In this document: positions 7,620-48,487 of the stretch, piece after piece
How the letters are laid out: the number at the start of each line of letters is the position of its first letter
Position numbering within the stretch: the first letter of the stretch is position 1
Assembly (NCBI GenBank): GCA_046155125.1
Contig: JBJXEC010000004.1
Coordinates: 457 to 64,456, forward strand
DNA length: 64,000 bases
Source: Sphingomonas sp.
GTDB taxonomy: Bacteria; Pseudomonadota; Alphaproteobacteria; Sphingomonadales; Sphingomonadaceae
Direction: 5' to 3'
The notes under the pieces: generated by a model
What the model was told of the DNA's origin: nothing
Seen by the model: only the letters and a program-made list of their open reading frames with translations
Database searches by the model: none
Translations under genes and position numbers: made by a program

Positions 7620-7659
7620 ACGCTGGCTGGACGCCGGCGAAAACTAGGCGTATTCCAAG

Positions 7660-7752
7660 CGCCATCCCCGGGGAGCCGACAGGCTGAGAGGGGCGGTGCA
7701 AGCCCGCCCGACCCGCAGAACCTGATCCGGCTAGCACCGGCGGAGGGAGGGT
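7660..7752 (+). promoter_or_regulatory. TPP (THI-box) riboswitch upstream of thiC
   Basis: The sequence contains GGGAGCC..GCTGAGAGG..ACCCGCAGAACCTGATCCGGCTAGCACCGGCGGAGGGAGG. This matches the conserved CUGAGA and ACCUGAUCCGG..CCGGCG.AGGGA cores of the TPP aptamer, located 55 nt upstream of the thiC ATG. Confidence 0.9.
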
Positions 7753-7801
7753 CTGGCTTTCATCCCTGAAACCCAGCCTGGCTCTCCGTATTTTGGAGTG
7801 A

Positions 7802-9691
<1,890 letters not shown>

Positions 9692-37122: not shown

Positions 37123-37896
37123 ATGTCGGTTCAAGCAGTAATATTGGCAGGGGGCCTCGGTAGCAGGCTCGGCGAAGAAACAACTATCCGGCCAAAGCCG
37201 ATGGTTGAGATAGGCGGCATGCCGATTATTTGGCATATCATGAAAATCTATTCATTCTATGGCGTGAATGAATTCATCGTTTGCCTTGGCTATAAAGGCT
37301 ATATGATAAAGGAATATTTCGCCAATTACTTTCTGCATACGTCCGATGTAACCATCGACTTGAAAGAACAGTCGCTCGACGTTCATCAGAATTGGGGCGA
37401 GCCGTGGCGGATTACCCTGGTTGATACAGGGGCCGACACCATGACTGGCGGTCGGCTGAAGCGGGTGCAGCGCTATCTGCGGCCCGACCAGCCGTTTTGC
37501 CTGACCTATGGCGACGGCCTTTCGGACATAAACATTCGCAAGTTACTTGAATTTCACGCAATTCACGGCCGCAGGGCAACCATCACGGCAGTTGCGCCAC
37601 CTGGACGTTTTGGGGCGCTCGAGATGGAGGGCAACATCGTCCGAGCGTTTCGCGAGAAGCCGGCGGGTGATGGCGGCCTCATCAATGGCGGCTTTTTCGT
37701 TCTGCACCCGAGCGTTATTGACCTCATTGAGGGCCCACACACCGTCTGGGAGCAGGGCCCGCTCGAAAAGCTTGCCCATGCAAGCGACTTGGCGGCGTTC
37801 CGCCATGATGGCTTCTGGCAGCCGATGGATACGCTGCGCGATAAGCTGCACCTCGAGCAATTGTGGCAGGACGGCGCGCCCTGGAAGCGCTGGTGA
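37123..37896 (+). CDS. rfbF: glucose-1-phosphate cytidylyltransferase
   Basis: Strongly conserved RfbF/DdhA sequence (VILAGGLGSRLGEETTIRPKPMVEIGGMPIIWHIMKIY). ATG 37123 (the track begins at TTG 37111). Confidence 0.93.
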   Translation: MSVQAVILAGGLGSRLGEETTIRPKPMVEIGGMPIIWHIMKIYSFYGVNEFIVCLGYKGYMIKEYFANYFLHTSDVTIDLKEQSLDVHQNWGEPWRITLVDTGADTMTGGRLKRVQRYLRPDQPFCLTYGDGLSDINIRKLLEFHAIHGRRATITAVAPPGRFGALEMEGNIVRAFREKPAGDGGLINGGFFVLHPSVIDLIEGPHTVWEQGPLEKLAHASDLAAFRHDGFWQPMDTLRDKLHLEQLWQDGAPWKRW

Positions 37897-38975
37897 TGGC
37901 GAGCCCCTGGCCTGGTCGGCGCGTGTTCCTGACGGGGCATACCGGGTTCAAGGGCAGCTGGCTGGCGCTGTGGCTCGCTGATCTGGGCGCGGAAGTGACG
38001 GGCTATGCGCTGGCGCCGCCGACCTCGCCTAGTCTTTATGAGCAGGCTGGCGTCGCGGGGGTCCTGGCACGCGACGTGCGTGGCAATGTCTGTGATTTGG
38101 CGGCCCTTGAGGCAGCGATCGCTGATGCCCGGCCGGATATTGTGTTTCACCTCGCCGCACAGCCGCTGGTGCGCGCCTCTTATGACGACCCGGTGGAAAC
38201 CTATGCCACCAACGTGATGGGCACAGTCCATCTGCTCGAGGCATGCAGGCGCGTGCCCGGCATTAGCGGCGTTGTGTGTGTCACGTCGGACAAATGTTAT
38301 GAAAACCGTGAATGGATCTGGCCGTACCGCGAGAATGATCCGATGGGCGGGCATGATCCGTACAGCAGCTCGAAAGGCGCTGCTGAGCTGGTGATTTCGG
38401 CCTATCGTCGTTCATTCTTTTCTGGCGATGACGCGCCGGGCGTTGCCTCAGTGCGTGCCGGCAATGTGATTGGTGGGGGTGATTGGGCAGCGGACCGGCT
38501 GGTGCCCGATATCGTCCGGGCGCTTGCCGGCGGCAACCGGCCACGCATTCGCGCGCCCGATTCCGTGCGCCCGTGGCAGCATGTGCTGGAGGCGCTGAGC
38601 GGCTATCTGATGATCGCCGAGCGGCTGCTCGAAGGCGACAAAAATGCCGCAATCGCCTGGAATTTTGGCCCGGCAGAGGGCGATACCCGGCCGGTTCGCT
38701 GGATTGTTGACGCGATGTTAACCATCTGGGGTGCTGAAGGGTGGGATCAGCCAGAAGGGGTGCAGCCACACGAAGCGGCGATGCTCCTGCTGGATAGCGC
38801 GCGTGCCCGGTCGCAGCTTGGCTGGCGTCCGGCGCTCGGCTTGGGGGATGCGTTGGCGATGGTGGTTGAATGGCACAAATCGGTGGCAGGCGGCGGCGAT
38901 GCCCGCGACCTTTGCGCCCGGCAATTGAGCGCGTATCGCGCGCGGCGCGCAGCGATTGAGGGAACACGCACATGA
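37896..38975 (+). CDS. rfbG: CDP-glucose 4,6-dehydratase
   Basis: It has the Rossmann motif [14 protein letters not shown] and the catalytic YSSSK (YxxxK). The start shares one nucleotide with the rfbF stop (TGATG). Confidence 0.92.
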
Positions 38976-40357
38976 GCACGGCACCCAAGTTCGACGCGCT
39001 CGATTTCAACGGCGCGATTGCTTCAGGCGATGAAGCGTCGGCCCGCGCGACCATCCTCGATATGGTTGCGGACTATGCCCGCGCCTTCCATTCGCCAAAG
39101 CCGTTTGTACCCGGTCAAAGCGCGGTGCCGGTGTCTGGCAAGGTTTATGGCGCGCCGGAAATGCAGTCGCTGGTGGATTCGGCGCTCGATTTCTGGCTCA
39201 CCACCGGCCGCTTCAACGACGCTTTCGAGGCGCGGCTGGCCGAGCGGCTGGGCGTGCGGCACGCGCTCTCCGTCAATTCGGGGTCATCGGCAAACCTGCT
39301 CGCGCTGTCGTCGCTGACGTCGCATTATCTGCGCGGCGATGCCCTGAAAGCGGGCGATGAGGTGATTACGGTTGCAACCGGCTTTCCAACGACGGTCAAC
39401 CCCTCGCTGCAATATGGCCTGGTGCCGGTGTTCGTCGATGTCGACATTCCAACGTACAACATAATGCCGGAGATGATCGAGGCGGCAGTGTCGCCCAAGA
39501 CCCGCGCCATCATGATCGCCCACACGCTTGGCAACCCGTTTGACCTTGCCGAAGTGATGCGCGTTGCCGAAAAGTATAATCTTTGGGTCGTTGAGGATTG
39601 TTGCGATGCGCTGGGCGCGACCTATGCTGGCCAGGGCGTTGGCACCTTTGGCCATATCGGCACGCTGAGCTTTTACCCCGCGCATCATATTACCATGGGC
39701 GAGGGCGGTGCGGTGTTTACCGACAAGCCGCGGCTGAAGCGCGTTATCGAATCGATGCGCGACTGGGGCCGGGATTGCTGGTGCGCGCCGGGCAAAGACA
39801 ATACGTGCGGCAAGCGCTTTGCCCGCAAGCTCGGCGACCTGCCGATGGGTTATGACCATAAATATACCTATAGTCATGCCGGGTATAACCTGAAGATCAC
39901 TGATATGCAGGCCGCGGTTGGCCTGTCGCAAATGGACCGGCTGGATGATTTCATCGCCGCGCGCCGGGCGAATTTTGCCTTGCTGACGGAATTGCTTCGC
40001 CCGCTTGAAGAGGTGTTCATTCTGCCGGAAGCGACGGCCAACAGCGACCCTTCATGGTTTGGCTATCCGATTACGGTGCGGCAGGGGGCGCGGTTCACCC
40101 GCGATGCTCTCGTCCAGCATCTCGATGCGCATCGGATTGGCACGCGGCTGTTGTTTGGCGGCAATTTAATCCGCCAGCCTTACATGCGGGGCCGCGAGTA
40201 CCGCGTGGTGGGCGATTTGGCCAATGCCAACATCGTCACCGACAATACATTCTGGATCGGCCTTTTCCCGGGCCTCACTCAAGATCATATTGGTTATGCG
40301 ACCGCGCAAATTAAGGACTTTGTTAACCATCAAGGGCATATCACTGGCATCACCTAA
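38972..40357 (+). CDS. rfbH: CDP-6-deoxy-D-xylo-4-hexulose-3-dehydrase (E1; RfbH/DdhC), DegT/DnrJ/EryC1 family
   Basis: 461 aa. The active-site position carries His instead of Lys ([12 protein letters not shown]). A four-Cys spacing C-X57-C-X1-C-X7-C runs from EDCC to [16 protein letters not shown] overlap with rfbG. Confidence 0.88.
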
Positions 40358-40386
40358 TCGGCGGGAAGACACGGGGGATCGCCACG

Positions 40387-41193
40387 GTGAATAGCTACGA
40401 AAAGCGGATGTGCGACATTTTGCGCGAAGGCGCCGACATTGGCGGCTTTCTGGCCGTTAAGGCGGAGTTCGAAGCAGAGGGGACGCGCACCGACGAGCTG
40501 CTCCGCTTGCTGGAAATTGCCCGGCGTGCCGGCGTCAACGTTGGTGTGAAGATTGGCGGGTGCGAAGCGATCCGCGATCTCATCGAATGCCGGCAATTTG
40601 GCGTGGATTACGTCATCGCACCCATGGTTGAGACGCCCTATGCGCTCTCCAAATTTGTGGCTGCGCGTGACAAGGTCTTCACACAGGAGGAGCGCGCCGA
40701 TATCGGCTTTCTGTTCAATGTCGAGACGATCACGACCTTCAACAACTTGGTGGCGATGGGCGAAATCGCTGGCCGCGACAAAGTTGGCATGGTGTTCGGC
40801 CGCGTTGACTTTGCCGGATCGCTGGCGCTGGACCGTCGGGCGGTGAACACGCCCGAGACGACCGATGCCGTGGTGCGCGTCGCAGAAGTGGCAGCCGAGC
40901 ATGATGTCGATCTGGTCGTAGGCGGTGGCGTCAGCCCCGAAGCGGTCGACTCGCTGGTGCGGGTGCGCAAAACGAAGCTGACGCGCTTTGAAACCCGCAA
41001 GATCATTTTTGATGCCGCTTGCCTGGAAGACGGCCGGGTGATGGCGGGGCTTGCCCTCGCGATCGAGTTCGAGCTGCTGTGGCTCAAGAACAAGCGCGAC
41101 TATTATCAGACGATCGGCAGCGAAGACGATGCCCGGATCATGATGATGGAAGCCCGTCAGCGTATCAAGGCTCCGTTGCGCGGTATCGCCTGA
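40387..41193 (+). CDS. HpcH/HpaI aldolase / citrate-lyase-beta-like TIM-barrel protein (family call tentative)
   Basis: 268 aa. It has a KIGG...DYVIAPMVETPYA block reminiscent of PEP/pyruvate-binding TIM barrels. The start is GTG 40387 or ATG 40408. Confidence 0.55.
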   Translation: MNSYEKRMCDILREGADIGGFLAVKAEFEAEGTRTDELLRLLEIARRAGVNVGVKIGGCEAIRDLIECRQFGVDYVIAPMVETPYALSKFVAARDKVFTQEERADIGFLFNVETITTFNNLVAMGEIAGRDKVGMVFGRVDFAGSLALDRRAVNTPETTDAVVRVAEVAAEHDVDLVVGGGVSPEAVDSLVRVRKTKLTRFETRKIIFDAACLEDGRVMAGLALAIEFELLWLKNKRDYYQTIGSEDDARIMMMEARQRIKAPLRGIA

Positions 41194-41235
41194 CCTGATT
41201 TTTCCCCAAAGCGACGGGAGGGGCGATTGGCCCGA

Positions 41236-43092
41236 ATGCGCGTTGCCGATGTGATCGCCCAAACGCTGGTTGCCGGCGGCGTGACCGATATGTTCATGCT
41301 GACCGGCGGCGGCGCCATGCACCTGAACGATGCGTTCGGGCGGGTGGAGGGTCTGAAGCGGCACTTCAACCACCATGAACAGGCCAGTGCGATTGCGGCG
41401 GAGAGCTATGCCCGGCTGTCGGGGCGGATGGCGGCGGTAAACGTCACGACCGGACCCGGCGGCGTCAACGCACTGAACGGCGTGTACGGCGCCTATGTCG
41501 ACTCCATTCCAATGATTATCGTGTCTGGCCAGGTTAAGCGGGAGACTTTCGCGCCCAATTTCGCGCTCGCATTGCGGCAGCTTGGCGACCAGGAAGTCGA
41601 TATTGTGGGCATGGTGCGCGGCATCACCAAATATGCGGTGGTGCTCGACCGGCCTGAGGATGTGCTCAGGATCGTTGGCAAGGCGCTGTGGCTTGCGCGG
41701 CGCGGGCGCGCCGGGCCGGTGTGGATTGACGTGCCGATTGACGTGCAGGGCGCGGTTGTCGAGGTTGAAGCGCTCGACGCATTCGATCCGTCGAGCCTTA
41801 GCCGTGATGGCGAGGCGGCCAATACTGCGGCCGAGGAAGCGGCGCTTGTCGGCGCGGCGCTGGGCGCTGAAGTTGCAGCAATGCTTGGCGAGTTCTGCGC
41901 AGCTGAGCGGCCACTGGTGCTGGTCGGGTCCGGTATCAGGCTGTCGGACACGCACGCGCAGTTCCTGGATTTCATCGAGCGGGTTGGCGCGCCCGTTGTG
42001 ACCGGCTGGAACGCACATGATGCCCTACCTAACGCGCACCCGCTTTATGCCGGACGCCCCGGCACCGTCGGTGATCGCGCCGGGAATTTCGCGGTGCAGT
42101 CCGCCGATTATCTGCTGGTGCTCGGCTCGCGGCTTAACATCCGCCAGATCAGCTATAACTGGAGGTCGTTTGCGTCGGGCGCGCGGATCGCGATGGTGGA
42201 CATTGACCGCGCCGAGCTCGCAAAGCCGACGCTTGCGCTGCACCGGCCGATCCATGCCGATCTTCGCGATTTCTTCGCCGCCGCCGCAGCGATTCCGCTG
42301 GCGGTTGGGCAGGAAAGCGCCCGCGCCGCCTTTGTCGCGCGCTGCCGCGACCGAAGCGAGCAGTTCCCGGTCGTGCTCGATGACTATTGGGCAACGCCCG
42401 CGCCGGTAAATCCCTATTGCTTCACGCAGGCGCTGTTCGATGCGCTGGAGGTGGGCGATGTGGTGGTGTGTGGCGACGGCACGGCTTGCGTAACCACTTT
42501 CCAGGCGGCCAATCTGAAGCCCGGCCAGCGACTTTACACCAATTCGGGCTGTGCCTCGATGGGGTATGATCTGCCTGCCGCCATTGGTGCGGTTCATGCA
42601 GGCGTTGCGCGGCGGATCATTTGTCTTGCCGGCGATGGCAGCATCATGATGAACCTGCAGGAATTGCAGACGATTGCTGGCGAGCGGCTGCCGATCAAGA
42701 TTTTTGTGCTCAACAATGATGGCTATCACTCGATCCGTCAGACGCAGCAGAATTATTTCGCCGATAACATTGTGGGTTGCGGGCCCGATAGCGGGCTGAG
42801 CTTTCCCGATTTCGTCAAAGTCGCCGCCGCCTTCGGCCTGGCGACAAGCCGTGTCGATACCCATGCCGCGCTCGCCGGCGCGATTGGCGCAGCGATCGCC
42901 GGCGACGGCCCGTCGCTATGCGAAGTCATTATCGACAAGGAGCAAGGCTTTGCGCCCAAGCTCGCCTCGCGGCGGCTCGATGATGGCACGATGGTGTCGC
43001 CCGCGCTGCACGACATGGCCCCGTTCCTGCCGCGCGATGTGCTTGCGGCGGCGCTCGACCGGGAACCCGACAAAAACGCCGAGGCAGCATGA
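41236..43092 (+). CDS. thiamine-diphosphate-dependent enzyme, acetolactate-synthase-like three-domain type (YerE-like candidate)
   Basis: 618 aa. The N-terminal Pyr domain reads MLTGGGAMHLNDAF...HHEQASAIAAESYAR. The ThDP-binding motif is GDGSIMMNLQELQTIAGERLPIKIFVLNNDGY (GDG-X-NN). Confidence 0.85.
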   Translation: MRVADVIAQTLVAGGVTDMFMLTGGGAMHLNDAFGRVEGLKRHFNHHEQASAIAAESYARLSGRMAAVNVTTGPGGVNALNGVYGAYVDSIPMIIVSGQVKRETFAPNFALALRQLGDQEVDIVGMVRGITKYAVVLDRPEDVLRIVGKALWLARRGRAGPVWIDVPIDVQGAVVEVEALDAFDPSSLSRDGEAANTAAEEAALVGAALGAEVAAMLGEFCAAERPLVLVGSGIRLSDTHAQFLDFIERVGAPVVTGWNAHDALPNAHPLYAGRPGTVGDRAGNFAVQSADYLLVLGSRLNIRQISYNWRSFASGARIAMVDIDRAELAKPTLALHRPIHADLRDFFAAAAAIPLAVGQESARAAFVARCRDRSEQFPVVLDDYWATPAPVNPYCFTQALFDALEVGDVVVCGDGTACVTTFQAANLKPGQRLYTNSGCASMGYDLPAAIGAVHAGVARRIICLAGDGSIMMNLQELQTIAGERLPIKIFVLNNDGYHSIRQTQQNYFADNIVGCGPDSGLSFPDFVKVAAAFGLATSRVDTHAALAGAIGAAIAGDGPSLCEVIIDKEQGFAPKLASRRLDDGTMVSPALHDMAPFLPRDVLAAALDREPDKNAEAA

Positions 43093-43751
43093 CGCTCGCG
43101 GCGATTTTCGACCTCGATGGTACGCTGGTTGACAGTGCGGCAATCTGTGCCGCGATCCTGAATGCGATGCTCACCGAGCGTGGCGCGCCTGCGGTGCTTG
43201 CCCGGGCCGAGGTTGTGCCGCAGCTGAGCGCGGGCGGGCCGCAAATGGTGGCGGCCTTGCTGGGCGTGTATTGCGGCGATCCGGCACGCGATATCGCGGC
43301 GTTTCGCGCGCGCTATGCGGCAATGCAAACCCCGGCTGACAGCCTGTATCCTGAGGTTCGCTCCGGGCTCAATGTGTTGCACCGGCGCGGGGTGCGGCTG
43401 GGGATTTGTTCCAACAAACCGCAGAATTTGTGCGAAAAGGTGCTGGGTGATCTCGAATTGGCGTCGCTGTTTGTAACAATCGTTGGCGGGCGACCTGCGT
43501 TGCCGCCCAAGCCCGCGCCAGATTTGCTGTTCCAGGCCATGCGGCAAATGGGTGCCGCGCCAGCATCGACGCGGTTTGTCGGTGATAGCGCGCTTGATGG
43601 TGCGTGCGCGCGTGCGGCCGGAGTTACGTTTCTGGGCGTTGCCTATGGGTATGACGCGCTCGACACGCCCGAGTGCCATGCGCGCTTTGGCGATGTAGTC
43701 GATGCGCTGCTGCAAGGCGCCGGCGCGCCGGCCGGAGCGGTTGCCGCATGA
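43089..43751 (+). CDS. HAD family hydrolase (phosphoglycolate-phosphatase-like)
   Basis: It has HAD motif I (IFDLDGTLVDS), then SNK, then a C-terminal GDS..D. ATGA overlaps on both sides. Confidence 0.85.
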   Translation: MTLAAIFDLDGTLVDSAAICAAILNAMLTERGAPAVLARAEVVPQLSAGGPQMVAALLGVYCGDPARDIAAFRARYAAMQTPADSLYPEVRSGLNVLHRRGVRLGICSNKPQNLCEKVLGDLELASLFVTIVGGRPALPPKPAPDLLFQAMRQMGAAPASTRFVGDSALDGACARAAGVTFLGVAYGYDALDTPECHARFGDVVDALLQGAGAPAGAVAA

Positions 43752-44722
43752 CTGTACCGACCCTTCCCGCACACGTCGCCCAAGCGCTGGCGCGGGCGGG
43801 CAAGCGCGTTATCCTTACTGGTGCGAGCGGCTGGCTCGGGCTGGCGACGCTGGAGCTGCTTGAAGGCGTGTTTGGCGCTGCCTTGGCGAGCCGCGTGGTG
43901 TGTTTCGGCGGATCGGCACGCACGCTTGGGCTGCGGTCTGGCACCCGGATCAATCAGTACCCGCTCGACTCAATCGCAGCGCTTGAGCCGATGCCCTCAA
44001 TGGTGCTGCACTTCGCCGCCTTGACGCGCGACCGCGCCGAGGTGATGGCAGAAGCCGACTATCGCGCCTCTGCTCTCGGCATCCGTACCACCGTGCTGGC
44101 AGCGCTTGGCCGGTGCGGCGCGGACGCGGTGTTCCTGGCCTCGTCCGGCGCGGCGGCCCGCGTGGAGGACGCAGCGGCGCCGGCAGCACTTCGTTGCTAT
44201 GGCGACGTCAAGCGCGACGACGAACAGGCGCTTGCCGACTGGGCCGAGGCGACCGGCAATAGCGCGGTGATCGCGCGGATCTTCAATGTGTCGGGCCCCT
44301 ATATCAACAAGACCGGGCATTATGCGCTGTCCACCTTCATTTCGGCAGCACTGGCCGGGCAGCCAATCCGGATAAACGCCGGCCACCGCGTCGAGCGCGG
44401 TTATGTCGCGATCCGCGAATTGATGGCGGTGGTGCTGGCCGAGCTTATCGACAGTACCAGCATGTGCCGCTTCGACGCTGGCGGTGATCCTGTCGAGCTT
44501 GGCACGCTTGCCCAATTGGTCAGCGACGTGCTGGGTCCCGTGCCCATTGTCCGCGCGGCAGCGGCTGACGCGCCGGTTGATCGATATGTCGGCAATGCCA
44601 CTGTGTACCAGACATTGCTCGCCAAGCACCGGATTGCGCCGGTGCCGCTCGCGACTCAAATCGTCGAAACCGCCGACTGGCTCGCCATTGGCGGCACGTC
44701 GGCCGACCGGTGCGCTGCGTGA
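43748..44722 (+). CDS. NAD-dependent epimerase/dehydratase family (extended SDR) protein
   Basis: Trimmed to ATG 43748. It has the Rossmann motif VILTGASGWLGLATLELL and the catalytic YGDVK (YxxxK). Confidence 0.75.
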   Translation: MTVPTLPAHVAQALARAGKRVILTGASGWLGLATLELLEGVFGAALASRVVCFGGSARTLGLRSGTRINQYPLDSIAALEPMPSMVLHFAALTRDRAEVMAEADYRASALGIRTTVLAALGRCGADAVFLASSGAAARVEDAAAPAALRCYGDVKRDDEQALADWAEATGNSAVIARIFNVSGPYINKTGHYALSTFISAALAGQPIRINAGHRVERGYVAIRELMAVVLAELIDSTSMCRFDAGGDPVELGTLAQLVSDVLGPVPIVRAAAADAPVDRYVGNATVYQTLLAKHRIAPVPLATQIVETADWLAIGGTSADRCAA

Positions 44723-44739
44723 CGGTGCCCGGCAGTATC

Positions 44740-45351
44740 ATGGCGTCGCTCATCGCCATCCCCGGCATCCGCGATTGGCGGCTGCGCTGGGCGCTTGTGG
44801 GCATGGCGCTGTTCGTCTGCGGCCTGCTAACATTGTACCCGACCCAATACCGCGCGTCGGCGCTGCTCGCGCCCGCATCGCTTGCCGATATCGGGCTTGG
44901 CGGCACGCTTGGCCAGCCGCTCGCCGTCACCAGCATTTTCGGGGTAAAGGCGCCGGCTGAAGTCGGGCTGGCGATCGCGCGGAGTGCGCCGGTCCGTGCC
45001 CGGGCCGCACGGTTGCTGTGCATTGCGCCCGCCCGCCAGGAGGCAAATGTCATCGTGCGCAGCGCGCGGGGGGGGCTGGTGCTGGTGGAAGCGCGCGATG
45101 CCAGCGCCAACAACGCGCTCGCGCTGGTGGCGTCGCACGTCGCGGCGATGCGGGTGGAACTTGCCGCGCTGTCGCTGCGGGAACGGAGCCGTGCGCGGGC
45201 GTCGTGGCTGCTCATTGACCCGCCCCATGTCGATGTCGGCCGGCCGATCAACTCGCGGCCGCTTGCCGTTGGCGCGCTGATCCTGCTGCTCGCGACCGTC
45301 ATGGAAGTGTATCGCAGGCGGCCGCCGCTGGGTGTCAGGACGGCGCGATGA
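44740..45351 (+). CDS. small bitopic membrane protein, Wzz/PCP-like (tentative)
   Basis: An N-terminal TM is followed by YPTQYRASALL (Wzz-like P-x-Y-x-A). A soluble middle part and a C-terminal TM with a proline-rich tail follow. At about 200 aa it is much shorter than canonical PCPs. The stop overlaps the GT2 start. Confidence 0.4.
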   Translation: MASLIAIPGIRDWRLRWALVGMALFVCGLLTLYPTQYRASALLAPASLADIGLGGTLGQPLAVTSIFGVKAPAEVGLAIARSAPVRARAARLLCIAPARQEANVIVRSARGGLVLVEARDASANNALALVASHVAAMRVELAALSLRERSRARASWLLIDPPHVDVGRPINSRPLAVGALILLLATVMEVYRRRPPLGVRTAR

Positions 45352-46280
45352 CCATCAGCGACGGGCCGGAAATCTCGGTCGTCATTCCGTGCCGCAACGA
45401 AGCGGCAAATGTTGTTGCGATGGCCGCCGCCGTCACAGCAGCGCTGGATGCGGTTAGTGCGACATTCGAGCTCATCTTCATCGACAATGCGTCAACCGAC
45501 ACCACCGCCGCGCTGGTGCGCAATCTGTGCGCCGCTGACCCGCGGATAAAGCTCATCATCAATGCCCGCAATTTCGGCCAGATGCGCTCGCCCACCTATG
45601 GCATTTTCCAGGCGCGTGGCCGGGCGGTGATCGGCATGTGCTGCGACTTTCAGGATCCGCCGGATTTGCTTGGACGCTTTGTCGAGCGGTGGCGCAGCGG
45701 CACTGACATCGTGCTCGGGGTCCGTGAGAGCGAGCGCTCCGGCTGGCGGCTTAAAACAGCGCGCAACCTTGCTTATGGTTTTGCCCTGCGGTTCGGTGAT
45801 TACCCGGTCGTGCGCGATGCGACGGGCTTTGGTTTATATGATGCAAAAGTGGTGCGCGCGATCGCTGCACTCAATGAGCCCGAGCCGTTCTTTCGCGGTA
45901 TGCTCGCCGAAACCGGGTTCAGCATTGCGACCATTCATTACGCACGGCCCGCGCGCGCGGGCGGCAAGTCGAACAATGGCTTCTTCGCGCTGCTCGATTT
46001 TGCGCTGTCCAGCCTGGCCAGCACTTCCAAGAAGCTGATCCGGGTGCCCTTCTATCTTGGGGTAATGGGCATCGCTGCGTCGCTCATGATGCTGCCCGTC
46101 TTGGCGCTCGCGGCACTGGGTGGTGGTGCCTGGCTTGGCTGGCTTGCGGCGAGCGCTGTCGAGCTGCAACTGGGGCTGTTGTTTCTGTTCCTCGGGATCA
46201 TCGGCGATCAGGTTCGGCTGGTATCGGAGCGAACGCGCGGCACGCCGTTGGTCATCGAACGCGAACGGGTTAATTTCTGA
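45348..46280 (+). CDS. family 2 glycosyltransferase, GtrB/ArnC-like polyprenyl-phosphate glycosyltransferase
   Basis: It has VVIPCRNEA, FIDNASTD and CCDFQDPP motifs plus two C-terminal TM helices, as in GtrB-type enzymes. Confidence 0.85.
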   Translation: MTISDGPEISVVIPCRNEAANVVAMAAAVTAALDAVSATFELIFIDNASTDTTAALVRNLCAADPRIKLIINARNFGQMRSPTYGIFQARGRAVIGMCCDFQDPPDLLGRFVERWRSGTDIVLGVRESERSGWRLKTARNLAYGFALRFGDYPVVRDATGFGLYDAKVVRAIAALNEPEPFFRGMLAETGFSIATIHYARPARAGGKSNNGFFALLDFALSSLASTSKKLIRVPFYLGVMGIAASLMMLPVLALAALGGGAWLGWLAASAVELQLGLLFLFLGIIGDQVRLVSERTRGTPLVIERERVNF

Positions 46281-46678
46281 TGGCGCGGCACCAGTTTATC
46301 GCAGCGCCGCCTGTGGCGACATCGCTTGCGCAATTGTTGCGCTATTATCAGGTGGGCTTGGTCAATACTGGCTTTGGCTTTGCCTGTTATGCGGGGCTGG
46401 TGGCGCTTGGTCTCAACATCTTTGCGGCACAACTCGTCGCTTACGTGGCTGGCGCAAGCTTTAACTACATCACCTATCGACGCTTCGTTTTTGTCGGCGC
46501 AGCGCCTGCGGGCCGGCGGTTTGCGGCATCCTATCTTGTGCATTATCTGCTGAGCGCTGCCATCCTGGCCGGGCTGGTTCGCCTTATCCCATCGCCCTAT
46601 CTCGCTGGCCTGGTCACGGTGCTGGTCGCGTCGCTGGTCAATTATGTCGCGCTCAAGCGCCTGGTGTTTGCCCGGTGA
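46280..46678 (+). CDS. GtrA family membrane protein (putative lipid-linked sugar translocase)
   Basis: 132 aa with four TM helices. It has a GtrA-like pattern (YYQVGLVNTGFGFACY, FNYITYRRFVF, VNYVALKRLVF). Confidence 0.8.
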   Translation: MARHQFIAAPPVATSLAQLLRYYQVGLVNTGFGFACYAGLVALGLNIFAAQLVAYVAGASFNYITYRRFVFVGAAPAGRRFAASYLVHYLLSAAILAGLVRLIPSPYLAGLVTVLVASLVNYVALKRLVFAR

Positions 46679-47967
46679 TGCCGCCGCGATCGCCCGCCAC
46701 GCGCAATTTGTGGCTTGAGCGCTGGCTTGGCCGAATGATTCTGGCGGCGCTGGCCTGGGTGCTGTTGACGGGCGTCTATGCACATCATTTGCCGCCACCG
46801 ATGTACTATTTTTCCGGCGACCGGATGATGGACTGGTTCAACACCGCATTTTGGGCGCGGGATGCCGGCATGTATGACAATTGGGGGAGCATTTATCCGC
46901 CATTGTCGTTCCTGCTGCTCCGGCTACTGGGCGATACCGGCTGCTATCCGGCATTCGACGGCGTGGCCGCGCGAGCGTGCGATACGGCAGGGATGTTGGC
47001 GATTCACGCACTATACGTGCTGGACGTGGTCCTTATCGCCCGGGCTTTCCTGAAGATCGACCGTGCAACCGCTGTGCCGCGCGCTATCGCGCTATCGGCA
47101 GGCTTGCCGCTCGTTTACGCGCTCGACCGGGGCAATCTGATGCTCGCCTGCGTGCCGTGTGTGGTGCTCGGCGTTGGCCCGCTATGCCGGGCCAGCTGGG
47201 CGCGAGCCGCGTGGGTCGGTGCTGCACTGAACTTCAAAGTATATTTGCTGGGCGCGGTGGTCGCGCAGATCGCTGGCGGCAAATGGCGGCGGGTGGAGCG
47301 CGCGCTGATCGCGGCAGTTGGCGTGTATCTTGTGAGCTTTGCGCTGCTCGGCCTGGGCACGCCTGGCGAGATCGCGCAGGATCTGATCGCGTTTGGCAGC
47401 GGTGATGCCCCGCGACTGATCGATCTTTGGTATCCCTCAAGCTTTGTGCCGCTGCGCTCACTGCTCATCGCGGACAATCCGCAGCTGCTGGCGCTGCTCG
47501 GACCAGACGTTGGCGGCGCGCTGATCGTTGGGCTTCCCTGGGCGGTTCATGCCGTGCAACTGTGCATCGTGGCAGCGCTGGCGGCTGCCTGGATCCGGCC
47601 GGGCGCGGTGCCGACCTATCGGCTGGCCGGGCTGGGCGCAGCGCTTGCGCTAATCAGCGTCGAGGCAGGCGGCTATGCGCAGTGGTTTGTGCTGTTTTTC
47701 GTGATGATCGAGCGCTGGGAAGCGGGCTTTGGCGCGAAATGGGCGATTTTGACGTGTTACGCCCTGTGCATGCCCCTTGACATCGTGTTGGCAGCGGCCC
47801 CGCAAGGCGCTGGCTTCCCGCCGCTCACTCTCGGTCATTTTCTGCGCCCTGCGATGCTGGCGTCGATTCCGCTGGCGCTGTCGCTGGAAACGTTGGCCCG
47901 GGCTTGGCGTACCCTGCGCGCGGGCCGTGCTGTGGCAAATTCGACTATGGACCCGCTCGCTGTCTGA
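46675..47967 (+). CDS. polytopic membrane protein, GT-C fold glycosyltransferase candidate (DUF2029/GT87-like)
   Basis: 430 aa with more than 10 TM helices. The first loop carries acidic residues (SGDRMMDWF) and an IYPPLSF motif. It sits in the position of GtrC in Gtr clusters. Confidence 0.55.
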   Translation: MMPPRSPATRNLWLERWLGRMILAALAWVLLTGVYAHHLPPPMYYFSGDRMMDWFNTAFWARDAGMYDNWGSIYPPLSFLLLRLLGDTGCYPAFDGVAARACDTAGMLAIHALYVLDVVLIARAFLKIDRATAVPRAIALSAGLPLVYALDRGNLMLACVPCVVLGVGPLCRASWARAAWVGAALNFKVYLLGAVVAQIAGGKWRRVERALIAAVGVYLVSFALLGLGTPGEIAQDLIAFGSGDAPRLIDLWYPSSFVPLRSLLIADNPQLLALLGPDVGGALIVGLPWAVHAVQLCIVAALAAAWIRPGAVPTYRLAGLGAALALISVEAGGYAQWFVLFFVMIERWEAGFGAKWAILTCYALCMPLDIVLAAAPQGAGFPPLTLGHFLRPAMLASIPLALSLETLARAWRTLRAGRAVANSTMDPLAV

Positions 47968-47977
47968 GCCGCTGGTA

Positions 47978-48421
47978 TCAGGCCAGCACGAGCAGGAGCG
48001 GCAATGCGCTGCCAGCCGCCAGGAGCACCAGCGACAGCGTGCGCATCCGTGCATTGTTGAGCGCCACGACCAGGCCAATCAGCGTGGACAGCATCAGCCC
48101 AATTGACATCAATCCGACAAACGCCTTGAGCGCCAGGGGATAGGCCCGCGCGGGAGGCGCGCCCGCCTTTTTAGCGAGCCCTTCGTCCGGCGGCGTGGCG
48201 CGCTGCGGCGTGGCGAGCTTCGGGCGCGGCATCGCTTGCTTCTTGTGCAGGCTTGCGATCACGCTGATCCACCGGGGCGGCGGGGACGCGCCTGCGCGCC
48301 GTTCATGAAAATCGAACGTCTGAAGAGCGCCACTGAACGCAAAAAACAGAATGGCTGGCGCAAACAGCACGCCCAGATAATGATGATAGACGCGCAGTCG
48401 GCGCATCATGCTGGCTTTCAT
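47978..48421 (-). CDS. PepSY-associated TM helix-like small membrane protein
   Basis: Trimmed to ATG 48421. It has RVYHHYLGVLFAPAILFFAFSGALQTF, typical of PepSY_TM regions, and a second C-terminal TM. It lies downstream of motB on the same strand. Confidence 0.45.
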   Translation of the reverse strand: MKASMMRRLRVYHHYLGVLFAPAILFFAFSGALQTFDFHERRAGASPPPRWISVIASLHKKQAMPRPKLATPQRATPPDEGLAKKAGAPPARAYPLALKAFVGLMSIGLMLSTLIGLVVALNNARMRTLSLVLLAAGSALPLLLVLA

Positions 48422-48487
48422 CGGTTTCGTCCTCCGCGGATGCCTCAGCGCTGTTTGGTAACCGGGCGGCGGCCACGGCGCCACGGA

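Follow-up and report, generated by a model that had tools for sequence, protein, structure and literature searches.

The window analysed here is a stretch of 64,000 nucleotides from Sphingomonas sp., and its positions 37123–47967 carry eleven intact open reading frames (ORFs) on the + strand, in which putative genes for a branched CDP-linked dideoxyhexose are joined to a predicted lipid-carrier glycosylation module of the Gtr type. The sugar half starts with rfbF/ddhA (37123–37896; glucose-1-phosphate cytidylyltransferase, 257 aa), rfbG/ddhB (37896–38975; CDP-glucose 4,6-dehydratase, 359 aa) and rfbH/ddhC (38972–40357; E1-type CDP-4-keto-6-deoxyglucose 3-dehydrase, 461 aa). These are followed by genes for a divergent HpcH/HpaI-fold pyruvate aldolase-like protein (40387–41193; 268 aa), a YerE/JanthE-type carboligase dependent on thiamine diphosphate (ThDP) (41236–43092, 618 aa, or 621 aa from TTG 41227), a HAD-IA phosphatase (43089–43751; 220 aa) and an extended short-chain dehydrogenase/reductase (SDR; 43748–44722; 324 aa). 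The second half encodes a truncated KpsE-like inner-membrane protein that resembles polysaccharide co-polymerases of class 3 (PCP-3) (44719 or 44740–45351; 210 aa), a GtrB-type polyprenyl-phosphate glycosyltransferase of family GT2 (45348–46280; 310 aa), a GtrA-family small membrane protein (46280–46678; 132 aa) and a GT-C glycosyltransferase distantly related to GT87/PimE (46675–47967; 430 aa).

The original prediction for this DNA, made from the sequence alone, had described eleven + strand genes with seven overlapping junctions, and the ORF listing recovered the same ORFs and overlaps, namely rfbF/rfbG (1 nt), rfbG/rfbH, ThDP/HAD and HAD/SDR (4 nt each) and, in the transfer half, PCP/GT2 (4 nt), GT2/GtrA (1 nt) and GtrA/GT-C (4 nt). 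An eighth overlap of 4 nt, between the SDR and PCP-like genes, is possible if translation of the latter begins at GTG 44719, the start chosen on an independent assembly. The other gaps, which had been given as below 45 nt, measured 29 nt and 33–42 nt, with none above 42 nt. The start/stop overlaps suggest translational coupling, and from the spacing we infer transcription of the operon as one unit. A pattern scan yielded no more internal terminators in the operon than in shuffled sequence, which is weak evidence either way; the promoter pattern scan gave nothing above chance, and no regulatory RNA was found at the operon in an Rfam scan. The GC content at third codon positions (GC3) is coding-like across the operon, and the ORFs were called full length in comparison with homologues, the PCP-like ORF being intact with an internal deletion of ~146 residues. 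Logan contig L001, an independent assembly, is 99.8% identical over 38148–46392 and has the same gene order, by which an assembly or binning artefact is ruled out as the cause of the gene arrangement or of the missing Wza gene described below.

To place the operon among its relatives, a one-genome-per-species scan was made for the GT-C enzyme, and the resulting loci, together with metagenome loci, were compared with a tblastn panel. The GT-C was found in 47 species, nearly all Sphingomonadales (among them Sphingomonas, Novosphingobium, Sphingobium, Erythrobacter, Sandarakinorhabdus, Stakelama and Sphingomicrobium), with a few metagenome-assembled genomes (MAGs) of Caulobacter; among the cultured carriers are Sphingomonas pokkalii L3B27, Sandarakinorhabdus limnophila DSM 17366, Novosphingobium sediminis NBRC 106119 and Erythrobacter litoralis SNB-035. 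Counts given below refer to the 39 well-covered loci, in which the GT-C gene is preceded by at least 9 kb of sequence, or, for downstream genes, to the 38 loci in which at least 5 kb follow it. The products recur in the order RfbH, an aldolase, NeuB-like or 234-aa HAD-like protein, the ThDP enzyme, (HAD), SDR and Wza, followed by the PCP-like protein, GT2, GtrA, GT-C, (a 560-aa secreted protein), (a methyltransferase) and a PMT_2-type GT-C. The ThDP enzyme, GtrA, the PCP-like protein and one of the three alternatives at the aldolase position are each encoded in 39/39 loci, GT2, SDR and the Wza/KpsD-like exporter (Wza) each in 38/39, and the PMT_2-type second GT-C in 26/38; in 38/39 loci the exporter is accompanied by a KpsE-like protein of full length. 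Co-occurrence of the full set across Sphingomonadales, for which the original prediction had suggested a gene-neighbourhood comparison, is thereby supported; ThDP enzyme, GtrA and GT-C stand together in all 39 loci, across genera and down to a GT-C identity of ~37%.

Further genes recur in some of these clusters. The gene between the two GT-C enzymes encodes a protein of ~560 aa (L024:11353–13050; at least 11 loci have homologues) with a Tat-like signal (GRRAFL), a Gly/Ala-rich composition and conserved Cys residues; a transmembrane (TM) helix is absent, and the profile of the protein had no match in PDB, Pfam or NCBIfam. From composition and Tat-like signal we guess it to be a beta-helix, and a role as a periplasmic enzyme in trimming or modifying the glycan is conceivable. 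Just downstream of the cluster, seven loci encode a type I secretion-like ABC exporter (616 aa) together with a HlyD-family protein (451 aa), as in L030:13403–16605.

Every family assignment of the original prediction was reproduced with hidden Markov models. At the level of NCBIfam equivalogs, RfbF scored 433.6 bits with TIGR02623 (cutoff 300.25; Pfam NTP_transferase also matches), RfbG 474.4 bits with TIGR02622 (cutoff 278.45) and RfbH 724.9 bits with NF011936 (cutoff 423). The RfbH translation contains the motifs SFYPAHH and C-W-C-x7-C (C-x-C-x7-C). By the DegT family motif, we take the former to show His in place of the catalytic Lys of aminotransferases and the latter to be the expected [2Fe-2S] site, and both would fit an E1 dehydrase. 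An E3 reductase (RfbI/DdhD/AscD, with Fer2, FAD_binding_6 and NAD_binding_1 domains), which RfbH needs, was not detected in the 64-kb window by tblastn with the L005 homologue as query (E ≤ 1e-3). Its gene adjoins the cluster in six relatives (L005, L015, L018, L020, L044 and L055), and for the window it may be encoded elsewhere in the host genome.

The 268-aa protein encoded after RfbH matched Pfam HpcH_HpaI with 26 bits (cutoff 25) and had no PDB match by sequence or by profile. Its AlphaFold2 (AF2) model (pLDDT 91.6) retrieved the HpcH/HpaI aldolases 3QZ6 and 4B5W as best Foldseek matches (TM-score 0.56–0.60), followed by SbnG, malyl-CoA lyase and the pyruvate kinase barrel, all of them barrels that bind pyruvate or phosphoenolpyruvate (PEP). 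Sequence and model together point to an HpcH-fold aldolase at the fold/family level, for which a role in making the 2-oxo acid donor of the branch is proposed. The family comprises >6700 proteins, and the position of the gene corresponds to that of MMAR_2331, an aldolase/citrate-lyase-family gene of the caryophyllose cluster. A NeuB/PseI-like synthase (L002:1648–2766) replaces the aldolase or stands beside it in 13/39 loci. Such a synthase would condense PEP with an aldose, and its occurrence at the aldolase position implies branches of different length, possibly long and polyhydroxylated ones.

All three Pfam TPP_enzyme domains match in the ThDP enzyme. Its best PDB match was 8RPH (393 bits, E 2e-116, residues 2–607 against 8–600, C-terminal extension included), which is JanthE, a YerE-like ketone-accepting carboligase (PMC12188165); acetolactate synthase reached 239 bits and PpYerE (5AHK) 224 bits. 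A function as acetolactate synthase was ruled out, since the protein scored below every NCBIfam acetolactate synthase cutoff and JanthE was by far the better match. The similarity to YerE and JanthE supports the earlier suggestion that this enzyme would branch a CDP-4-keto-3,6-dideoxyhexose. The window also contains a thiamine pyrophosphate (TPP) riboswitch (7659–7765, +; Rfam RF00059, 61 bits, above the gathering score), which lies directly 5' of thiC (7808–9691, +), ~30 kb from the ThDP enzyme gene, and represents ordinary thiamine regulation.

The HAD protein matched Pfam HAD_2 with 99 bits and is phosphoglycolate-phosphatase-like, with a score below the respective NCBIfam cutoff. A close homologue is present in 29/39 related loci, and a 234-aa protein with a DxDG motif, HAD-like and unrelated to the HAD of the operon, occurs in 10 loci, mostly those devoid of a close HAD homologue. 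The phosphatase would dephosphorylate a precursor or an intermediate of the branch. The SDR (Pfam Epimerase, 56 bits), present in 38/39 related loci and deleted in L009, is proposed as a candidate for a YerF/ErwF-like reductase of the branch carbonyl.

In acyl-branched 3,6-dideoxyhexose pathways, an aldolase makes a hydroxylated 2-oxo acid, which a YerE-type enzyme adds, with decarboxylation, to CDP-4-keto-3,6-dideoxy-D-glucose before a reductase finishes the branch (Steitz et al. 2022, PMC9306805). The aldolase, the ThDP enzyme and the SDR match this scheme, and the sugar half is thus an instance of a published pathway and not a new one. The original prediction had known of no described system with the composition of this operon, and nothing in the incomplete set of literature searched contradicts it. 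The clusters named for comparison are those for yersiniose (YerE/YerF), erwiniose (ErwE/F/I/J), caryophyllose (MMAR_2331–2333), gastriose and the O-antigen sugar of Rhodopseudomonas palustris CGA009 (PMC9306805). As in these, genes for CDP-4-keto-3,6-dideoxyglucose adjoin those for an aldolase and a ThDP carboligase of the YerE type, here with the SDR as the candidate NAD(P)H reductase, and the window aldolase belongs to the same aldolase/citrate-lyase family as MMAR_2331. The sugar of the described clusters is, as proposed, passed on by a conventional glycosyltransferase, into the lipooligosaccharide of M. marinum and the lipopolysaccharide (LPS) of P. atrosepticum (PMC9306805), whereas the sole cytoplasmic transferase here is a GtrB-type GT2, followed by GtrA and GT-C. 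The present clusters differ further in that a phosphatase is usually present, be it the HAD homologue or the 234-aa protein, in the NeuB-like synthase of 13 relatives, and in their hosts, which are Sphingomonadales.

Turning to the transfer half, the GT2 matched Pfam Glycos_transf_2 (78 bits), with PgfS and ArnC as best NCBIfam matches. All seven PDB matches at E ≤ 1e-5 were polyprenyl-phosphate sugar synthases, led by Synechocystis GtrB (5EKP; E 4e-35, residues 8–303, full length) and followed by ArnC and DPMS; hydrophobic segments between residues 230 and 285 were read as two TM helices, that is, as a C-terminal membrane anchor. ArnC uses a UDP-sugar, and DPM1 uses GDP-mannose. GtrA scored 56.6 bits with Pfam GtrA_DPMS_TM (PF04138; cutoff 26.1) and is a candidate flippase for the lipid-linked sugar.

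For the GT-C protein, the only Pfam match was one to GT87 that stayed under the cutoff (19 bits, E 1.2e-3; cutoff 25). The AF2 model (pLDDT 71, pTM 0.77) gave PimE (9DM5) as best Foldseek match (E 1e-3, TM-score 0.49/0.54), then PIG-U and, weakly, ArnT. Sequence and model support a GT-C fold and do not support membership of a named CAZy family. Residues D53, Y74, N154 and K188 are invariant in 45 diverse members, the Asp at position 53 following the first TM helix. The family is small: a full profile scan of 1.84 billion representatives returned 720 representative clusters at E ≤ 1e-3, and the members of the distant ones are all metagenomic proteins. A word-based search found 11 relatives, and a search with the 45-sequence profile via the word index found 12 proteins, which added no taxonomy. 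The window protein is identical to the NCBI entry "hypothetical protein ACKVOB_00400" of a Sphingomonas sp. MAG, which supports the sphingomonad host considered in the original prediction. Taken together, the PDB, Pfam and fold matches support the architecture foreseen in the original prediction, consisting of a GtrB-like GT2, GtrA and a GT-C enzyme.

This architecture was compared with known three-component systems, comprising GtrA/GtrB/GtrC of Salmonella and Shigella, ArnC/ArnT, CsbB/GtcA/YfhO and Citrobacter ORF12–15, on which GT136 was founded (Kelly et al. 2024, PMC11127046). As in these, the genes for a polyprenyl-phosphate sugar synthase, a candidate small flippase and a GT-C enzyme stand together. 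The window system differs in its presumed donor, which would come from a CDP-sugar pathway instead of a UDP-sugar or phosphoribosyl pyrophosphate (PRPP), and in its GT-C, which is PimE/GT87-like and not a GtrC, ArnT or GT136 enzyme. Moreover, the module sits, in its relatives, in an export cluster with an outer-membrane polysaccharide export (OPX) protein and a PCP-3 protein and without backbone-synthesis genes; it may therefore build a glycan and not only decorate one. The mycobacterial GT87 enzyme PimE (9DM5) is the best fold match and is likewise compact, with no large periplasmic domain. The invariant D53 of the GT-C lies in the first periplasmic loop, at a place which we take to be comparable to that of the essential Asp58 of PimE. 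Set against this likeness are the Pfam score below cutoff, an identity of ~14% and a TM-score of ~0.5, and taxa, donor sugar and gene context also differ.

Concerning the connection between the two halves, an all-against-all clustering of the flank ORFs yielded no conserved family beyond those named. The GT2 was the only conserved Leloir glycosyltransferase, and neither an ABC-2 transporter nor Wzx, Wzy or an initiating phosphoglycosyltransferase was among the conserved proteins. The lack of another conserved glycosyltransferase, together with the co-occurrence described above, links the CDP-sugar to the GT2 and is the main evidence for one joint pathway. As the main alternative, the operon could hold two independent modules on one transcript, with the CDP-branched sugar being used by a Leloir glycosyltransferase encoded elsewhere and GT2/GtrA/GT-C moving an ordinary sugar, for instance glucose from UDP-glucose, like classical Gtr systems. 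We regard this as unlikely. It would agree with the description of characterised GtrB-type enzymes as using UDP-sugars (PMC11127046), with Synechocystis GtrB as the closest match of the GT2, and with the uncoupling of the parts in three sister genomes, of which L009 and L060 have the sugar genes, GtrA and GT-C without GT2 and SDR, and L059 lacks GT2; yet it leaves the 39/39 association of ThDP enzyme, GtrA and GT-C unexplained, offers no conserved glycosyltransferase within the clusters for the CDP-sugar, and is at odds with start/stop overlaps that cross the module boundary. The association is also kept in the two distant arrangements L056 and L061, the latter consisting of a NeuB-like gene, SDR, GtrA, GT2 and a distant GT-C.

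In the metagenomic locus L056 (10001–20798), the aldolase–ThDP–HAD genes face a divergent set on the other strand, which encodes adh_short and FAD_binding_4 proteins (DprE2/DprE1-like), a 372-aa protein, GtrA, GT-C (31% identity), GT2 and a PCP homologue. DprE1/DprE2-like enzymes act on polyprenyl-phosphate sugars, and the arrangement suggests that a lipid-linked branched sugar is epimerised on its carrier.

The 210-aa PCP-like protein of the window itself matched no Pfam or NCBIfam family. By tblastn, it aligns to residues 4–170 and 317–359 of homologues of ~360 aa, skipping ~146 residues. The profile of the full-length homologues matched KpsE (8TSH_E; E 4.5e-10, positions 130–344) and Wzc (0.006), and on the NCBIfam side TIGR01010 BexC/CtrB/KpsE with E 2e-8, far below its cutoff. 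The KpsE-matching region is largely the part that is deleted in the window protein, in which TM helices 22–40 and 177–195 are kept and the periplasmic coiled-coil region is gone. In the relatives, the full-length homologues adjoin a Poly_export/SLBB protein of ~650 aa, an arrangement resembling group 2 capsule export by KpsE (PCP-3) and KpsD (OPX). Unlike those systems, the clusters have no conserved KpsM/KpsT ABC transporter, and the window has neither an OPX gene nor the periplasmic region of its KpsE-like protein. Within its 64 kb, no Wza (Poly_export/SLBB), PMT_2 gene or 560-aa protein was found. From the absence of the exporter, the second GT-C and the 560-aa protein, in conjunction with the PCP deletion, the window copy is recognised as a reduced derivative.

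Reduction has gone further in the sister genomes. When L009:8951–10001, L060:148–1201 and L059:1–680 were compared with window positions 43748–46280, the HAD gene of L009 and L060 was seen to run straight into a short PCP gene and then GtrA, with SDR and GT2 missing, and L059 showed the same PCP-to-GtrA junction with GT2 missing at that position. Between the window and L009, its nearest genome (dS 0.7–1.0), the ratio of nonsynonymous to synonymous substitution rates (dN/dS) in the nine shared genes was 0.03–0.39, eight of the nine lying at 0.03–0.21. The sugar genes gave 0.03–0.11, with the lowest value of the operon, 0.03, for the HpcH-like aldolase and 0.05 for RfbF; HAD, GtrA and GT-C gave 0.17–0.21 (GtrA 0.21), and the PCP remnant was highest at 0.39. 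These are thus real genes under purifying selection. GtrA and GT-C had dN/dS values of 0.16–0.18 (GtrA 0.16) also between L009 and L059, both without GT2 (dS 0.48 and 0.69). Purifying selection between genomes reduced further than the window indicates that the reduced forms are kept by selection and retained a long-term function after the losses. Since GtrA and GT-C persist without GT2, the GT-C evidently can use a lipid-linked donor from another enzyme.

These values bear directly on the possibility that, in the window, an exported-polysaccharide cluster is decaying and no longer makes a finished product. Such decay could be read from Wza, PMT_2 and the 560-aa protein missing in 64 kb, the ~146 residues lost from the KpsE-like gene, the dN/dS of that gene, the further loss of GT2 and SDR in the sister genomes and the lack of an E3 reductase in the window. 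It is considered improbable in view of eleven intact ORFs with coding-like GC3, of the low dN/dS in eight of the nine genes shared with L009, and of the constraint on GtrA and GT-C between the two further-reduced genomes.

On its upstream side the operon is flanked by a TonB-dependent receptor gene on the − strand, and downstream by a convergent gene for a small membrane protein, followed by motB, motA and flgL through flgD. The convergent gene (47978–48484, −) encodes 168 aa with weak PepSY_TM similarity, approaches the operon end to 10 nt and evolves fast (dN/dS 0.32–0.35 against L009 and L059). Adjacency to a flagellar locus, pointed out in the original prediction, does exist and carries no functional weight, since it is confined to the sublineage of the window: it is seen in the window, L009, L059 and probably L060 and in none of ~49 other loci compared. 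By tblastn among the loci compared, only the window and L009 had MotA, MotB, FlgL and FlgK next to the cluster; L059 has the same flagellar neighbours, and the contig end of L060 aligns by blastn to the start of the motB region. On this ground flagellar glycosylation was rejected. Widened to the glycosylation of secreted proteins, flagellar ones included, the idea could draw on the 10-nt distance to the convergent gene with the flagellar genes behind it, on the downstream PMT_2 gene of 26/38 relatives and on the type I secretion ABC/HlyD pair in seven loci. PMT_2-type enzymes include protein O-mannosyltransferases. We nevertheless hold protein glycosylation to be very improbable, as the window is devoid of PMT_2, the flagellar adjacency is restricted as described, and the OPX/PCP pair of the relatives points to a polysaccharide; to our knowledge, flagellin glycosylation is, moreover, cytoplasmic and proceeds without GT-C enzymes.

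Based on these data, our preferred reading, to which we give moderate confidence, is that the operon makes an acyl-branched 3,6-dideoxyhexose and delivers it across the inner membrane on a polyprenyl-phosphate carrier. Synthesis of a CDP-4-C-(hydroxyalkyl)-3,6-dideoxyhexose, the proposed first stage, is backed by strong homology and a published scheme, and the lipid-carrier and periplasmic stages are deduced from architecture and synteny. RfbF, RfbG and RfbH would convert glucose-1-phosphate to CDP-4-keto-3,6-dideoxy-D-glucose, as indicated by equivalog-level homology, with an E3 presumably encoded elsewhere. Following the erwiniose/caryophyllose scheme, the HpcH-fold aldolase would join pyruvate and an aldehyde to give a hydroxylated 2-oxo acid, probably assisted by the HAD phosphatase, a precursor being phosphorylated; the JanthE/YerE-type ThDP enzyme would decarboxylate this acid and add the acyl unit to C-4 of the sugar, and the SDR would reduce the side-chain carbonyl. 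The GT2, as the only cytoplasmic glycosyltransferase of the conserved set, is then predicted to transfer the sugar from CDP to undecaprenyl phosphate, GtrA to flip the lipid-linked sugar, and the PimE-like GT-C to transfer it to an acceptor on the periplasmic face.

Several points weigh against this proposal. The GT-C assignment relies on a sub-threshold Pfam match and on a TM-score that is only moderate, in a model whose D53 loop is of poor quality. We know of no precedent for a CDP-sugar as the donor of a GtrB-type enzyme. Loss of GT2 in L009, L060 and L059 weakens a one-to-one link between the CDP-sugar and GT2, and the system may be in decay, given that Wza, PMT_2 and the PCP core have been lost. 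Lastly, with no E3 reductase in 64 kb, deoxygenation at C-3 is not secured.

As to the acceptor, the original prediction had listed a glycosphingolipid, an exopolysaccharide or a protein. The Wza exporter and the full-length KpsE-like PCP of the relatives shift this list in favour of an exported polymer, which is the more likely ancestral product compared with decoration of a glycosphingolipid or protein, and the glycosphingolipid is kept as a guess for the window only. The full clusters probably produce a surface glycan that is exported and is either rich in the branched sugar or solely made of it. In the window, the sugar would most likely be added singly or as a short chain to an acceptor retained in the envelope, and by analogy with PimE we guess a glycosphingolipid or other glycolipid to be the leading candidate. 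Sphingomonads, like Sphingomonadales in general, lack LPS.

In the full relatives, the absence of any other Leloir glycosyltransferase and of a conserved Wzy, synthase, ABC-2 transporter or initiating phosphoglycosyltransferase, together with the presence of two GT-C enzymes and PCP/OPX proteins, suggests a fourth type of surface polysaccharide route in Gram-negative bacteria. The R. palustris CGA009 and Burkholderia caryophylli clusters have homopolymers of sugars of this class as their products. Tentatively, and with low confidence, we envisage an acyl-branched dideoxyhexose homopolymer (compare caryophyllan) that would be polymerised in the periplasm by the GT-C enzymes and passed to the PCP/OPX exporter, its donor being loaded from the CDP-sugar by the GtrB-type enzyme; the window would represent a stripped-down descendant that modifies an envelope lipid of an LPS-less bacterium. 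Periplasmic polymerisation of this kind would resemble the assembly of mycobacterial arabinan and mannan, where GT-C enzymes use polyprenyl-phosphate monosaccharide donors directly.

In a search of an incomplete set of literature, no described system was found that feeds a CDP-sugar into a Gtr-type module; nor did this search return anything linking sphingomonads to branched or dideoxy sugars, or GT87/DUF2029 to these genera. If our proposal is true, a CDP-sugar would here feed a Gtr-type (GtrB/GtrA/GT-C) system for the first time, and this sugar would belong to the 4-C-acyl-branched 3,6-dideoxyhexoses, a class among the rarest known. Assembly of a periplasmic polymer by GT-C enzymes, coupled to an OPX/PCP exporter, would, if true, add a route to the short list of bacterial polysaccharide pathways. 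The prediction is testable at once, as the carriers include cultured strains, and the reduced copy of the window serves better as a natural experiment on the loss of modules than as the model of choice. For the LPS-less sphingomonads, the cluster points to an uncharacterised surface glycan or glycolipid modification.

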